Source: a virus
IMG/VR virus record: IMGVR_UViG_3300045988_162015
DNA: 64,000 nucleotides
Strand: one strand, 5' to 3'
Shown: piece after piece, positions 6,560 through 16,175 of the stretch
How positions within the stretch are numbered: the stretch's first letter is position 1
Layout: the number at the start of each line of letters is the position of its first letter
Translations under genes and position numbers: made by a program
Notes under the pieces: generated by a model
Seen by the model: only the letters and a program-made list of their open reading frames with translations
Told to the model about the DNA's origin: nothing
Database searches by the model: none

Positions 6560-8551
6560 GTGAATAAAATAAATTAGTATAGAGATGGACCTACTAGAGC
6601 ATTTTGGTCTACAGTTTTTGATGGATTTGAATTAGAAATTCATTTAGTAGACCATTGCAACCTACAATGCAATAATTGTAATCATTTTTCTCCTTTGGCT
6701 TCTCCATTTTTTATTACTTACGAAGATTTTCAAAATTAGCTAAAATTAGTAAAAAAAACTTTGCCTTCTATTAAAGTTTTAATGCTATTAGGGGGAGAAC
6801 CATTTTTACATCCTAATTTAATAGAATTATGTTAGATAGCTAGAAATATTCTCCCAGAGATAGAAATAAAGATATTAACTAATGGTATAATTTTAAATAA
6901 TTATGATACAAAAAAATTAAAAAAATTAGAAGAATTAAATATACATATAAGTATTTCTAAATATCCTAATCAAGACTACAAAGATTTTAGCACTAATAAA
7001 AATATCTCATATTTAAATGATAGATTTTTCTTTGATTAGACGTTGGTTGACCCTTTAGGTAAACAAGATAATAAAACTCGCATATATAGTTGTCCAAATA
7101 GGATTCCTTGCTTTACATTAAAAGATTTTAAAATATATTTTTGTTAGTTTGGGGCACACATAAATAATTTTTGTAATTATTTTTTTAAACAAATTCCATT
7201 AATAGAAAATAAAGATTTTATAAAACTAACAGAAAAAACAAATTTACAAGATTTATAGAATTTAAAATTATGTGAAAAAAATATATGTAAATATTGTCGG
7301 CCAGGAGATGTGGTTGATTGGGATCAATCAACTAAAACTTATGATGAATATACTAAAACAGAAAAAGAATTATTCTTAACAAATTATAATGAATATTATA
7401 AAAAATTTGTTGATTTTTCTAATTTTTAGGATTTTTCAAAAAAGAAATCTTGGAATAACGTTGATTCTTGGTATGCTCCTGATAGAATGAGGACATTTAG
7501 AAAACGCAACGAAGGAAAAATTGATATTATAATTCCTTTTTATACAGTAAATAAAATATATTTTTAGAAATGTTTAGACTCTGTTTTTAAACAAAGTATT
7601 ATTAATGATTGTGTAATCTATTTAATTAGTGATAATTCTCCAGATAAAAAATATGTATATGAATTTTATAAAACTTATAATAATATATATAATATAATAT
7701 TATTAGATACTTAGAAAACTAAATCAGGCCCTGCCTCAGCTAGGACTCTAGGAATTAATAATAGCTTCAATAAGTATTTTTTCTGTTTAGATAGTGATGA
7801 TTATTTTTATGATAATAAGGCTTTAGAAAATTTATACATATATGCTGAAAATAATAATTATGGAATTGTAAATGGATAGACCTATGATAAAAATGAATTT
7901 ATCCATGATGCTCATAGTTATTTATATAATAGAGAATTTTTTATAAAAAATAATTTTTCTTATGGTAAATTTATTTATAATGAAGATAGATTTTTATCAT
8001 TATAGATTTTTGATTTTTATAATGGTACAATTCCCTTCTTAGAATAGCCTATTTACGTATATAATAGAAATAATGAAAGTATGGGTAAAGATATTAATTT
8101 TTTATATATGACAATAAATGAATTAATTGTTTTTACTTATTTTTATAGACAATATTTAATAAATAAAAAATATGAAAATAATCATTTTATTTTTGAACAT
8201 ATTTTTAATAAAATTATTGTAAATTTATCTATAATAGAAGAAATAACTGATAAAGACAAAGAATATCTAAAAGATATAAAACAAGAAGAAGCAATTTGTT
8301 TAAGTCTTATTTGTTTAATTTTAATTAATGATAAAATTTTGTTTAATAAGTTACCATTGTTTTATAAAGATTTATTAAATAAAATAAAAAAAGAAGATTT
8401 TATTAAATTAAATAATACAGTATTATTTAATTTAAATAGTCTATTTAATAAAGGAAATCATATACTTGATAATAATAAACTAATTAAACAATTTATTAAC
8501 AAAGAGTATATTGATTTTATAAAATACGAGGAGGAAAAATATGGCAATTAG
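6560..8551 (+). CDS. radical SAM domain fused to a family-2 glycosyltransferase (~660 aa); ~9 TAG; start uncertain
   Basis: Frame is open 6551-8551 apart from TAG codons. N-terminal 'VDHCNLQCNNCNHF' is a CxxxCxxC radical-SAM motif, followed by a Cys-rich SPASM/twitch-like segment. C-terminal part has the GT2 signature 'SDNSPDKK ... CLDSDDYF' (DxD). Only a GTG/ATT-class start is available; there is no in-frame ATG. Confidence 0.55.
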
Positions 8552-9057
8552 TTCAAACTCTAAAATAAATTGGAGTGATATTTAGACTATTTTTACTAAT
8601 TTAAATACCGCAAGAAAAAAATTTTTCCCTAGTTAGAGTGATTTTCAAGCGACTCCTGGAGGATAGTCAACACAAGCTATGGCTCAATTAGCTTAGAATT
8701 TAAATAAATATATAGAATCTTTTTCCAGTAGCAGTTATGTTGGTTCAAGAGCAAATATTAGCGAAAATCCTCCTTCAGCAGGAGATTTAATTAGTCCTAT
8801 TATTTTTAATAGATTTACCACTACAATTAGAAGTATAAATGATACCTGTGCTCATGATGCAAGTTATAACGCTAGTCATAGAGGTAGTGGATATAATAGT
8901 AGTTGGGATAGTTCTGATTATGGAGCAGGATGGGATACTTCTTATAATTCTTCTCATGATGGTTCAGGTTATCATTCTTCCTATTGGTCAGGGGTTAATC
9001 AAACCTGGTGTTCATCTCATGGATGCTCTAGTCATTATGGTTCTAGGCACACTTAAC
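8541..9057 (+). CDS. Ser/Gly/Tyr/His/Trp-rich small protein (172 aa); possible enzyme substrate
   Basis: ATG 8541 overlaps the upstream gene's end. C-terminal repeats 'GSGYNSSWDSSDYGAGWDTSYNSSHDGSGYHSSYWSG'. Sits between radical SAM genes. Confidence 0.45.
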
Positions 9058-9076
9058 ATTTAAAGGAGAAAAAGGA

Positions 9077-10510
9077 ATGAAATATATATCGGATTTTTCA
9101 ATAGAAGAATTATCTATTATTGGAGCTTGTGGATGTAATTTAAATTGTAAATATTGTCATTCAGCTTAGGCTGTAAATGAATATAGTAAATAGTTACAAG
9201 AATAGACTATAAAGGCTCTTAAAGATGGAAGTTATTTATAGAATATTAAAAATGTTATGAAAAAATTAGAAGTTAATCCGTTAAATATCCATAAAATAAG
9301 TTTTTGGGGCCAAGAGCCTACATTAGTATTAGAACATTTTACTAAAAATTTAAAAGATTTTTTTGAATTATGTCCCAATATTAATGAATTTTTTACTTCT
9401 ACTAATGGCATGGCTAATACTGATAAAATAATTGATTTTTTAAAAACTTTTGATAATTTAACTAAAAAACATTCATTTATTTGTATTTAGTTTTCTTATG
9501 ATGGAGATTATAGTACTGATAATGTAAGAAGAGCTAATTCTAAAGTAGTATATAATAATTTAAAATATTTAATAGAAACTTTAAATACAATTCATTTTAA
9601 TAATATTACTGTTGCTCTTAATACTCATGGAGTTATTAGTAATGAACTCATAAATCATTTTAATAATAAGTACAAAGAAATAGAATAGTATTTTATTTAG
9701 GCTAATGAAAAAATTCAATATTTAACTAATTTAAATCTAAATAAATCTGTTTTTATCAAAAATACTATAAATTTCTCTAGCGAATTACCTATTAATACTT
9801 CTAGCATTGATGGTATTAATTGGAGTAATTTTATAAAAATTTGTAAATCAATTGGAGAACACTATCCAGAAATTAATAATCCAGATAAAGACTCTATTGA
9901 AGGATTATTGTGTTTACCTCGAAAAGCAAAAAAATTTTTATTAAAAAATTTGGAATGTTCTAATTTAGATGAAGCTCTTGATAAAGTTTTAGCATTCTCT
10001 AATAAAGAATTAAAGAATGCTAATAGAAACTTAACTCCATTCTTATATTGTGGAGAAAAAACAGGAAGCTTAAAACTTTTATATGATGGAACATTAGTAA
10101 ATTGTTAGAGTTCTCTTTATGATACTAATCCAGAATATATTAATACTAATGATAAAATTGGGATTATTAAGCAATTCGCCGCAAATCATCATAATTATAT
10201 AAATCCATTGAAAGATAAAGATGAAGATATAAAAAATTGTTGTTTTTTATTTGAAACTTTATCTGTATCTAGTTTCTTTTATGTATATAATTAGATTGTT
10301 TCTTTATTATGTAATTTACGAGAAGTGCATTAGATAAGCCAAAAATTTAATGATGATAAATTTTTAATGAAAGCAGCATTATTATTAGTACCTATACATT
10401 CTTGCTTTTTTAACAGTTTAATCAGTACTGGTTCTTATTTCTTTAGAGATAGTGGATTTTTAAGAAGATATTGTAATGGAATTATTGAAGAAGTTTTGGA
10501 GGAAAAATAA
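9077..10510 (+). CDS. radical SAM / SPASM-domain protein; ~10 TAG
   Basis: ATG 9077 after an AAAGGAG RBS. 'GACGCNLNCKYCHS' is a CxxxCxxC motif. C-terminal Cys clusters present. Frame runs continuous to TAA at 10508. Confidence 0.6.
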
Positions 10511-14521: not shown

Positions 14522-15268
14522 ATGGATTATTTTTTATATGGATTGATCGATGGTTCTTATCAGCATGGAATAAATAATAACACAAGTAATATAGATATTA
14601 TTGAAATCTATTCTTCTTTTATAAATATGGAAAAAGAATTAAAAAAAATTTCAAATTTTGATTTAAATTTAATTCCATAGGAATAGTCTAATAATTTTAT
14701 GAAAAAATTTAATATTATAAATTGGAATCCTTCAAGGCGGATTTATACAGGAGAACATTTTATTTATAATTTATTTTATAATAATAACTATAGTTATTAT
14801 AGATGGTTATTCCCTTATCATTATTTAAGTGATAATGAATTTACTTTAGAAATAAAAAAAATTAATGAAGATATAGTTAAAGAAAATTTACCAGTCATTT
14901 ATTCTCAATTAATTAATGAAAGTAATAGATTATTTTAGACTGGATTACAAGAAAATTATTATAAATTAAAGAATTATTATAAATTAATTTATAAATCTTT
15001 TATTGATCTAATAATAATAATTGAATATTATAAAACAAAAAGTTATAAACAAAGTTTATAGTTAGGAATATATAAACCATACATTTTAGATATAAAAAAT
15101 AATTTTAACAATTACAGTAATTTTGATTTTATAGTAAAAAGAAATGAACTTTTAAATAAAATTTCAGAAATAAAAAATTTTTATTTAAATGCTCCTACCA
15201 ACACAAAATATCAAAATTAGTTAATTCAAAAAATGGAGAATACAAATTATTCAAAATTTTATATTTGA
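14522..15268 (+). CDS. hypothetical protein; several TAG
   Basis: ATG 3 nt after the previous stop. Frame continues from track ORF 14699-14938 to TGA 15266. Confidence 0.4.
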
Positions 15269-15276
15269 TAAAAAGT

Positions 15277-15299
15277 AAAAAATATTATATAATTTAAAT
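15277..15299 (+). promoter_or_regulatory. phage promoter motif (AAAATATTATATAAT class)
   Basis: One copy of the ~20x repeated motif, directly upstream of gene 15300. Confidence 0.45.
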
Positions 15300-16175
15300 A
15301 TGAAAAAAATAAATTTAAATTGTCCAGGATTTTATACTGGATTTAATATATATAAAACTCTTTTAGAATTACAATAGACAGCTCCAGAATGTTTCAATTC
15401 TAATGTAGCTATAGAGAGTATATTCGATACATTCCCAAATATGATTTGGAATGGAGGAACTGTCAATCAAGGCTATCAACCTTCATTAGAAAAAATAAAA
15501 GAAATTATTGATTTTTATTATGGAAATAATATAGAAATTGCTTTAACATTAACAAATCCATTATTAATAAAAGAAGATTTATATGATAGGTATTGTAATA
15601 AAATTGTTTCCTTATGTGAAAATGAAAATAATTCAATTTTAGTTTCTTCCTCTATTTTAGAAGAATATATAAGAAATAAATATCCTAAATTTAAAATTAA
15701 AAGAAGTATAATAGCTTCAAATAAAGATACAGATTATTTGTCTCTCTTAAATAAGTATGATAAAATTGTTTTACCTCGAAGACAAATAAAAGATTTTAAG
15801 TTTTTAGAATCAATTCCAATAGAAGTAAGAAATAGATTTGAACTTTTATGCAATGACCCTTGCCCGATTATTTGTCCATATTTATATAAACATTATAATG
15901 GATTTGCTAAAATAACTTTGTATGAAGAAGTAACTTCAAAAGATATTTTAAAATGTAAAACATTAAAAAGTAATGATCCTTTAAAGAATTTCCATTATAA
16001 GAATGATCAAATTACTTATAATGAAATATGTGAAAAATATTTACCATTATCCTATAATAGCTTTAAATTAAGCGGTCGGAATGATGTATTTACTATAATT
16101 TTTTCAATAGTTCCTTTTTTCTTTAAGCAAGAATATCAATTAGAATTAGCACATTATTTATGTTGTATAATTTGA
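15300..16175 (+). CDS. paralog family member C; 1 TAG
   Basis: ATG 15300. 'MIWNGG', 'EEYIRNKYPKF' and 'LLCNDPCPIICP' are shared with paralogs A and B. Confidence 0.55.

Follow-up and report, generated by a model that had tools for sequence, protein, structure and literature searches.

In the radical S-adenosylmethionine (SAM) systems for peptides that ribosomes synthesize and that are post-translationally modified (RiPPs), such as those of the triceptide/3-CyFE enzymes XyeB, YhhB, and GrrM, the ranthipeptide enzyme PapB, and the SCIFF enzyme CteB, the substrate gene lies directly upstream of a twitch or SPASM radical SAM gene, and the substrate joins a conserved recognition part to a variable part with aromatic-x-x motifs or cysteines. 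Here, we describe an island that shares this arrangement. It consists of ten consecutive genes, A to J, on the + strand at 6560-16175 of a 64,000-nucleotide stretch of viral DNA (IMG/VR record IMGVR_UViG_3300045988_162015; hereafter, the window), translated with TAG as glutamine. B is the putative substrate, and by sequence the enzymes C and D match RiPP radical SAM families most often and best, yet far under the family cut-offs. Unlike RiPP systems, the cassette is borne by phages, has two different radical SAM enzymes, and has a pair of U32-like proteins as an obligatory partner. The "leader" of B is a helical domain of ~105 residues, sometimes C-terminal of the repeats, its tails extend to 370 residues, and no peptidase, exporter or transporter, or recognizable RiPP recognition element (RRE) was found in the cassettes.

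The characterized U32 proteins are Fe-S enzymes tied to a hydroxylation of aromatic rings that does without O2 and takes its oxygen from prephenate, and two of them, UbiU and UbiV, act as a pair (PMC10990095; PMC11574389). The U32-like protein G resembles UbiU-UbiV, RlhA, and TrhP in its modeled fold, a TIM (triosephosphate isomerase) barrel nearest to the only solved U32 structure. It also has a conserved cysteine cluster, including CX3C, whose place right after a strand is that seen in UbiU, and a K-[IL]-E-G-R motif, and the cassette, like UbiU/UbiV, has two paralogs per system and an anaerobic (gut) setting. The differences are that a UbiT-like partner is absent, that the cysteine spacing departs from CX6CX15CX3C, that the Pfam U32 model is not reached, and that radical SAM enzymes and a protein take the place of RNA or quinone pathways as genetic partners.

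The glycosylation of the serine-rich-repeat adhesins Fap1 and GspB offers a further comparison, with family 2 and family 8 glycosyltransferases (GT2 and GT8) likewise beside a protein that has a Ser-rich stretch of low complexity. GalT1 of that pathway is nearest to the GT2 part of A. Unlike these systems, the cassette has neither the GtfA/GtfB (GT4) initiating pair nor an accessory Sec system, and B has no signal peptide or wall anchor; its glycosyltransferases are accessory to a radical SAM/U32 core, and one of them is fused to a radical SAM domain. There are reports of mycobacteriophages that glycosylate proteins of capsid and tail by means of glycosyltransferases of their own. A phage announcement goes only as far as suggesting capsid glycosylation (PMC11256854). 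Phage fibers and spikes that end in a Peptidase_S74 domain, an intramolecular chaperone ("chaperone of endosialidase"), share that domain with two relatives of B, and the cassette of the window lies between fiber-like genes.

All of these components belong to known superfamilies; it is their combination that appears new. A docking-domain substrate with a twitch radical SAM enzyme, a SPASM radical SAM enzyme, and a U32-like pair in phages was not found in the literature searched, and a docking-domain substrate with two radical SAM enzymes and a U32-like pair was absent from annotated phage genomes. We propose a self-contained cassette that would crosslink, probably hydroxylate, and in this phage glycosylate the tail of B, which would itself probably be a fiber-like virion protein. 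We offer this composite reading tentatively, with the balance leaning slightly against its being right in every part.

Results and Discussion

A conserved phage cassette

We placed homologs of the ten island proteins on 83 viral loci, on 10 genome loci, and on 4 more contigs (L numbers below). About 20 distinct cassettes, located in gut phage contigs of 100-210 kb and in both TAG-recoded and standard-code phages, share B-C-D-(E-like)-F-G, with A, H, I, and J as accessories. What is observed directly is the gene content, the synteny, how the families are related, and the architecture of B. B stands directly upstream of C in each of the cassettes examined, including those with the order F-G-B-C-D (L010, L093) and L015. 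A metagenome-assembled genome (MAG) contig (L091; CAYLJU010000010.1, 1-19086) carries a tandem, A-A-J-B-C-D-E-F-G followed by A-B-C-D-E-F-G, in which the two B tails differ, one with FGSNYGYDAAD/WNSGFYG repeats and the other with five copies of the unit FRATNFTSNYSG. Because of this strict B-C linkage and co-duplication, together with the affinity of C and D for peptide maturases and the joining of a conserved module to a hypervariable region in B, we consider the tail of B a likely substrate of the encoded enzymes.

The unit probably starts earlier than 6560, at the small gene Z upstream of A. Z has homologs upstream of A in L003-L006, and nearly every other cassette has an open reading frame (ORF) of ~107-148 amino acids (aa) just upstream of its B gene. 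Sequence similarity joins only subsets of these ORFs, so the membership of Z rests on position; as a sequence family it was discarded, jackhmmer giving close relatives only. E has homologs or positional equivalents between D and F in most cassettes.

No D-like gene occurred in any of the 50,697 GenBank phage records, where a G-like gene was limited to three unannotated fecal fragments, and a near-identity DNA search of GenBank phages returned tRNA matches only. In 185,579 species genomes there were ten loci only, nearly all of them MAG contigs binned mostly to Clostridia-type Firmicutes. The sole isolate locus is the cassette of Clostridiales Family XIII bacterium PM5-7 (L090), which is followed by terminase- and portal-like proteins (recognized by eye only) and provides a culturable entry point.

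The putative substrate B

A full HMMER scan gave a B family of 450 clusters at 50% identity, 203 of them at E <= 1e-10. Most B proteins are 120-300 residues long. All members have the N-domain of ~105 residues, modeled as three long helices at a predicted local distance difference test score (pLDDT) of 60-77, and a tail modeled as disordered (pLDDT ~30), which in the window comprises ~65 aa of Y/H/W/S/G/N character. Tails across the family span 20-370 residues, with the upper end in L015, where B has 476 aa, and contain 22% Ser, 13% Gly, 11% Asn, 11% Phe, 5% Tyr, and 4% Cys. Aromatic residues account for 20.5% of the tail versus 8.4% of the N-domain, with a commonest spacing of four residues, and the tails are rich in aromatic-x-x-Ser and aromatic-x-Ser motifs.

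The repeat unit is specific to each phage: Y/H/W-x-x-S in the window, and FNSS, YDGS/YRGS, NFGD, SNARNSYGD, HSSGT, (CN)n, and others elsewhere. The tails are hypervariable, and repeat copy number differs even among close relatives. The window B had been described from its sequence as an S/G/Y/H/W-repeat protein. Its last ~65 residues do show a degenerate aromatic-x-x-Ser periodicity, but Tandem Repeats Finder detected no repeat in the DNA of B.

In one locus (L093, 8833-9684), B is circularly permuted, with FSFPSSNF-type repeats at the N-terminus and the helical domain at the C-terminus, and is still directly upstream of C. Such a domain swap is expected of a docking module joined to a substrate region. 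One B subfamily has a conserved C-terminal cap, IDITNAYTNA, after the tail. In the relatives P0151 (41.2 bits) and P0179 (31.8 bits), a short tail precedes a C-terminal Peptidase_S74 domain (PF13884, cut-off 22; L097, L098), and in P0181 (L099/L100), DNGFRSSDF repeats precede a Hint/intein-like domain that scores under its cut-off. Each of these three proteins is still followed by a C-type radical SAM gene.

Radical SAM enzymes A, C, and D

The sequence-only reading had counted three radical SAM/SPASM proteins, two of them SPASM proteins flanking B. Three radical SAM enzymes are indeed present, but the gene order is A, B, C, D, and the seven-cysteine SPASM pattern occurs only in D, C being twitch-like and A having neither. 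The description of A as a radical SAM-GT2 fusion was correct: A scores 42.9 bits against PF04055 (cut-off 29.5) and, at residues 323-455, 61 bits against PF00535 (cut-off 23.3). Among five full-length fusion homologs, C33/C37/C40 and D411-S-D413-D414 are invariant, and because only two invariant cysteines lie beyond the CX3CX2C motif, A has no SPASM domain. The start of A is uncertain; we take GTG at 6560. The first ATG (6782) would remove the CX3CX2C motif. The GT2 part is closest to GalT1 (PDB 5hea, 6e-12) of the Fap1 serine-rich-repeat glycosylation pathway, and the radical SAM half weakly matches sugar and cofactor enzymes (MoaA; BlsE at 2e-5).

C reaches PF04055 with 32.0 bits. C20/C24/C27 are invariant, together with three more cysteines (C325-x17-C343 and C443), and the auxiliary region as read from the sequence is truncated and twitch-like, not SPASM (twitch as defined in PMC10114670). 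Seven of nine members of the C family match PapB and YhhB; GggB (1e-14), a twitch radical SAM enzyme (2e-12), and CbpB are also among the best matches. D is related to C (2e-6) and stays under the PF04055 cut-off with 19.6 bits, with C41-x3-C45-x2-C48 invariant in 18 homologs. We took as SPASM the pattern C-x9-15-G-x4-C ... C-x2-C-x5-C-x3-C ... C, for two auxiliary clusters, together with at least 27 bits against TIGR04085. All seven cysteines are invariant in D (C313, C331, C378-x2-C381-x5-C387-x3-C391, and C410), its score is 17.8 bits, and six of 11 family members match TIGR04085 at E < 0.01.

PapB and QhpD are matched by ten of the 11 D family members, nif11 by eight, SCIFF by seven, and YhhB by six. 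The best PDB match of D is CteB (5wgg, 2.7e-8), which together with 8vpo is also the best PDB relative across both families. Against the cyclophane maturase families (XyeB TIGR04496, YhhB NF041707, FxsB TIGR04269, and GrrM TIGR04261), the window proteins score 15-25 bits where the cut-offs are 310-450, and the best E-value of any family member is 1.5e-12, to YhhB. A few members of the two families also match, more weakly, viperin, MoaA, Rv1681, or spore photoproduct lyase models. We therefore regard C and D, on their sequences, as members of the broad clade of peptide- and protein-modifying radical SAM enzymes, though of no described family. A relationship to nucleotide-modification families had been raised as the alternative; the best and commonest matches, all of them sub-cut-off, are instead to peptide- or protein-modifying families (PapB, QhpD, nif11, SCIFF, YhhB, GggB, and CteB).

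Divergent U32-like proteins

The three proteins F, G, and J had been recognized as paralogs, and the comparisons agree (G-J 6e-37, F-G 1e-13, and F-J 2e-11). They had also been described as sharing IWNGG and LLCNxxCxxxCP motifs, and a check for auxiliary Fe-S domains had been suggested. They are not such domains; the second motif is the putative Fe-S motif of a divergent U32-type TIM barrel, the family to which sequence and model assign all three proteins, with cluster binding predicted. G has more than 200 homologs in metagenome contigs at 38-59% identity, and its AlphaFold model, made from 54 homologs, is a TIM barrel at pLDDT 91.5. Profile-profile comparison of G with the E. coli proteins UbiU, UbiV, RlhA, and TrhP gave 77% probability (E 2e-5 over 133 columns); the signal appeared only with this four-protein U32 alignment, hhalign against single UbiU or UbiV sequences being uninformative. 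When PDB chains were searched by sequence alone with the G profile, none matched, and the best viral match of the model is a phage protein annotated "Peptidase" (1e-11). F, G, and J do not match Pfam U32 (PF01136; IPR001539), and 7 of 56 homologs do so weakly (E 6e-4 to 1e-3; best 18.5 bits against a cut-off of 22.4).

Just past the aligned part, E-x-L-x-N-A-I-C-x2-G-C in G-type proteins corresponds to E-V-F-A-F-G-S-L-C-x4-G-x-C in UbiU, and K-L-E-G-R parallels K-I-E-G-R. The CX3C is invariant (C192, C196; F-, G-, and J-type residues all carry G numbering) and follows the strand equivalent to that preceding UbiU C169/C176. Three subtypes can be distinguished. The G-type is strongly conserved, at C46, R52, R82, K140, C161, D163, E185, N189, C192, C196, R199, H202, C221, K257, E259, and R261. 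F-type members retain mainly four cysteines (C192, C196, C202, and C221), and the J-type retains C192, C196, H202, C221, K257, and R261. Each cassette has one G-type gene and one F-type or J-type gene, and the G-type is the conserved member, with a probable catalytic role. J-type genes adjoin A-type GT2 genes in L012/L090, L043, and L091.

A lone, distant J-like gene of U32 type (~23% identity) also occurs, with no B, C, or D, in ~35 viral contigs (L049-L083) of 16-148 kb, most of them >70 kb. In L055, this gene (9845-10795) lies near genes that by eye resemble an NrdG-type activase and FolD. These lone genes may represent a different, nucleotide-related use of the U32 fold.

Accessory proteins

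H had been called a GT8, and it is GT8-like, with 23.9 bits against PF01501 (cut-off 24.3), matches to PDB glycogenin-1 and glycogenin-2 chains (2e-10 to 2e-9 over residues 5-153), and a D-A-D motif read in the sequence. Glycogenin glucosylates tyrosine. Of the three profiles that the sequence-only reading had named for the island, the GT2 profile is thus reached by A, the SPASM profile is missed by D, and the GT8 profile is narrowly missed by H. Searches of Pfam, NCBIfam, PHROG, and PDB gave no match for I. Its homolog in L008 (3307-3975) starts with GS-x10-SDLD-IIE, which resembles a minimal nucleotidyltransferase signature as a motif reading only; the window protein has SNID at the SDLD position, and the profile libraries give no support for a nucleotidyltransferase.

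Proposed maturation of B and its alternatives

The role of B as substrate, each chemical step, and the virion location are our interpretation of these data. We propose that the conserved core (B-C-D-E-F-G, perhaps with Z) would act as a protein-maturation cassette, in which the helical N-domain of B would serve as a docking or assembly module. The disordered tail, where aromatic residues alternate with Ser, Asn, Gly, or Asp and often Cys, would be the part modified. C, with one predicted auxiliary cluster, and D, with two, would remove hydrogen atoms from residues of the tail and thereby link side chains through cyclophane, thioether, or ether crosslinks. The F and G pair, comparable to UbiU-UbiV, would perform an O2-independent oxidation, most likely hydroxylation of aromatic side chains. 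In the window phage, A, H, J, and I would attach sugars to Ser or phenolic hydroxyls and tailor them. Because nine of the ten genes need the TAG suppressor tRNA, late expression of the cassette is probable, and the product would most likely be a modified fiber-like or decoration protein of the virion. Modification of a protein by glycosylation and/or radical crosslinking had already been suggested from the sequence. The adjacency of B and C, the affinities of C and D, and the likeness of A and H to GalT1 and glycogenin speak for it, but the glycosylation set is not the conserved unit.

A fiber or decoration protein of the virion is favored by the S74 fusions and by the fiber genes nearby, with odds that we put somewhat below even. 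The idea that a virion component is modified fits the S74-bearing relatives of B; for the B of the window, a place in the virion is conjectural. A second pair of the same logic lies elsewhere in the window and fits the maturation reading. The gene at 37959-39275 (six in-frame TAG) exceeds the cut-off of TIGR04115, the "radical SAM peptide maturase, CXXX-repeat target family" (380.1 versus 350), and the product of the next gene, at 39278-40138, opens with a long (CxxxC)n region and has ~150 non-repetitive residues at its C-terminal end. In L008 and L014, homologs of the maturase occur near the cassette.

A more specific version holds that the U32-family enzymes hydroxylate Phe, Tyr, Trp, or His of the B tail in an O2-independent, prephenate-dependent reaction, alongside the crosslinkers and glycosyltransferases, to give a crosslinked, catechol-like, glycosylated fiber or adhesive appendage. 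We think it unlikely that all of this is correct. If true, this would be a kind of post-translational chemistry, and of structural modification in phages, for which no precedent is described. B, if matured as proposed, would give U32-type enzymes, with a chemistry still unproven in vitro, their first protein substrate. In one lineage (L012/L090, 11451-12317), a phage- or prophage-borne 3-deoxy-D-arabino-heptulosonate 7-phosphate (DAHP) synthase, scoring 391.6 bits in L090 (cut-off 335), is encoded two genes downstream of the G-type gene. DAHP synthase opens the shikimate pathway toward prephenate, the proposed oxygen donor of U32 enzymes, and the enzyme beside the L090 cassette could feed prephenate to it.

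Several points weigh against the maturation of B, which is a proposal from sequence and models. The model of B is only moderately confident, the window B has no S74 domain, other Pfam match, or recognizable fiber repeats, and a tail motif common to all B proteins was not found among those tried (N-glycosylation sequon, aromatic-x-x-Ser, and S-aromatic). The excess of motifs over shuffled sequences (S-aromatic z 5.4, NxS/T z 4.6) is inflated by internal repeats. E has no PqqD/RRE or other Pfam match and is not recognizable as an RRE, and the N-terminal extensions of C and D leave too little room for one. The fiber-gene context is not general, as the cassettes of L018 and L088 lie among replication genes, and DAHP synthase was dropped as a recurrent neighbor, being found beside one cassette lineage only. 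To our knowledge, the substrates of characterized U32 proteins are RNA and quinones, never proteins. Finally, C, D, F, G, and J fall under every family cut-off, so chemistry cannot be transferred to them from a characterized enzyme.

The main rival keeps the same enzymology but ends in a released RiPP-like product, such as a toxin, signal, or adhesin fragment, with the N-domain as a cleaved leader and release at lysis. A long conserved leader, a hypervariable core, and radical SAM/SPASM maturases are the architecture of RiPP precursors, the best NCBIfam match of the window D is a nif11-like peptide maturase, the P0181 variant of B ends in a self-cleaving domain of the Hint/intein-like kind, and the cassette sometimes lies away from structural genes. 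The repeated aromatic-x-x motifs also recall multi-motif cyclophane (triceptide) precursors (PMC11002830). This explanation nevertheless seems rather improbable to us, given that neither a leader peptidase nor an exporter was found in any cassette, that the U32-like proteins carry Fe-S motifs and not a protease signature, that one B subfamily has a conserved cap beyond the tail, and that the long tails of L015 and the S74 fusions fit a structural protein better. In another explanation, what the enzymes modify would not be a protein but, for example, a nucleotide sugar or a glycan of host or phage, and B would be an unrelated small structural protein travelling along. A and H, an extra GT2 in several loci, the weak matches of the radical SAM half of A, the pairing of J-type genes with GT2 genes even outside full cassettes (L043), and a lower-scoring resemblance of the G model to glycoside-hydrolase TIM barrels would all suit such a role. 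We judge it unlikely, since glycosyltransferases are accessory (in many cassettes, those of L007, L009, L014, L015, L018, and L085, none was seen in the cassette itself or in as much sequence as was examined), B never parts from C and is duplicated along with the enzymes, C and D match mainly peptide maturases, and genes for sugar-nucleotide synthesis, a flippase, or a polymerase are not present.

The two remaining alternatives appear far less probable. PQQ and mycofactocin pathways combine a radical SAM/SPASM enzyme with a small partner protein, and that of mycofactocin also includes redox enzymes and a GT2. B could by this logic be the sacrificial precursor of a small peptide-derived redox cofactor, and an aldo-keto reductase with a 4Fe-4S domain is indeed inserted in L008 and L013. 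Yet the B tails have no conserved residue or terminus to yield a defined cofactor, a peptidase is absent, and no cofactor-dependent enzyme is linked to the cassette, which makes this the least probable explanation of all. Modification of RNA or DNA, for instance tRNA or rRNA hydroxylation as by TrhP and RlhA and perhaps in aid of recoded translation, is very improbable as well. The phage is recoded and has tRNAs beside the island, the distant lone J-like gene of L055 has neighbors that by eye resemble nucleotide metabolism, and two characterized U32 proteins are tied to RNA-base hydroxylation (PMC10990095). On the other side, the cassette also occurs in standard-code phages, no RNA-binding domain turned up, peptide maturases give C and D more and better matches than do RNA methylthiotransferase or methyltransferase families, and the co-inheritance of B would be left unexplained.

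If B is matured as we propose, its widespread family would mark phages that carry their own radical SAM machinery for protein maturation. Large phages of anaerobes would then chemically tailor a hypervariable appendage, which would matter for how hosts are recognized, for immune evasion, and for adhesion to cells or mucus, and genome mining in the RiPP style would gain a new enzyme combination.

Genetic code and layout of the island

The phage reads TAG as glutamine. With TAG read through, ORFs on the + strand cover 59.0 kb of the window, compared with 41.8 kb before; a tRNA with anticodon CTA was found (Table 1); and in 37 TAG columns of island proteins, homologs from standard-code phages have Gln more often than any other residue (18.3% versus a background of 3.1%). 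These columns include conserved Gln, namely Q138 of C in five of five and Q395 of D in four of five standard-code homologs. For these reasons TAG was translated as Gln throughout; standard-code ORF calling, which breaks every island gene into short ORFs, was replaced by TAG read-through. The statement that every gene of the island contains in-frame TAG was mistaken, because F has none. Genes with and without TAG are interleaved along the window.

Table 1. Genes and other features of the island and its surroundings in the window
Feature	Position	Strand	Details
Z: small gene upstream of A	6162-6485	+	
Terminator-like hairpin and T-run between Z and A	6491-6538	+	read from sequence
A: radical SAM + GT2 fusion	6560-8563	+	667 aa, 13 in-frame TAG
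B: putative substrate protein	8541-9056	+	171 aa
C: radical SAM, twitch-like C-terminal region	9077-10510	+	477 aa
D: radical SAM/SPASM	10510-11880	+	456 aa
E: small acidic protein	11873-12130	+	85 aa
F: U32-like, predicted Fe-S TIM barrel, F-type	12133-12981	+	282 aa, TTG start, zero in-frame TAG
G: U32-like, predicted Fe-S TIM barrel, G-type	12992-13924	+	310 aa
H: glycogenin-like GT8, accessory	13884-14519	+	211 aa
I: accessory protein	14522-15268	+	248 aa
J: third U32-like paralog, J-type, accessory	15300-16175	+	291 aa
Suppressor tRNA, anticodon CTA	19629-19703	+	ARAGORN; needed to translate nine of ten island genes

The hairpin between Z and A consists of ATGCTTGAAAAGC, a 15-nt loop, and GCTTTTCAAGCAT, followed by T8; the consensus scan did not report it because its loop exceeds 8 nt. 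That promoter and terminator scan was uninformative in this AT-rich window, with 114 promoter-like sites against 111 expected. A promoter-like TTGATA-17-TATAAT precedes J at 15265-15293, and such sites are no commoner than chance here. Three further tRNAs (16241-16314, 17983-18069, and 20436-20509) cluster with the suppressor tRNA just downstream of the island. The G+C content of the island (window 6000-16000) is 19-24%, versus 29-37% in the flanks and most of the window, which suggests a module acquired by or exchanged between phages.

Neighboring genes

The island had been placed between tail-fiber genes, and fiber-like genes do flank it on both sides in the window; homologs of fiber genes also lie beside the cassette in L003, L007, and L013. 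A flanking 983-aa protein matches baseplate and tail PHROGs. At least five fiber-like proteins (window 3-6137 and 20587-25083) share a C-terminal motif of ~30 residues, …LWID.SS.G..KY…W..….AW, which suggests an attachment or trimerization module on exchangeable fibers. In L008 (8041-9168) and L013 (8026-9072), the aldo/keto reductase fused to a 4Fe-4S dicluster domain stands between the E-like gene and F. Homologs of a 519-aa protein of the window (28629-30185) recur beside the cassette in L001, L009, L010, L013, and L028, and that of L001 carries precomputed Pfam assignments to DUF2828 and DUF7788.

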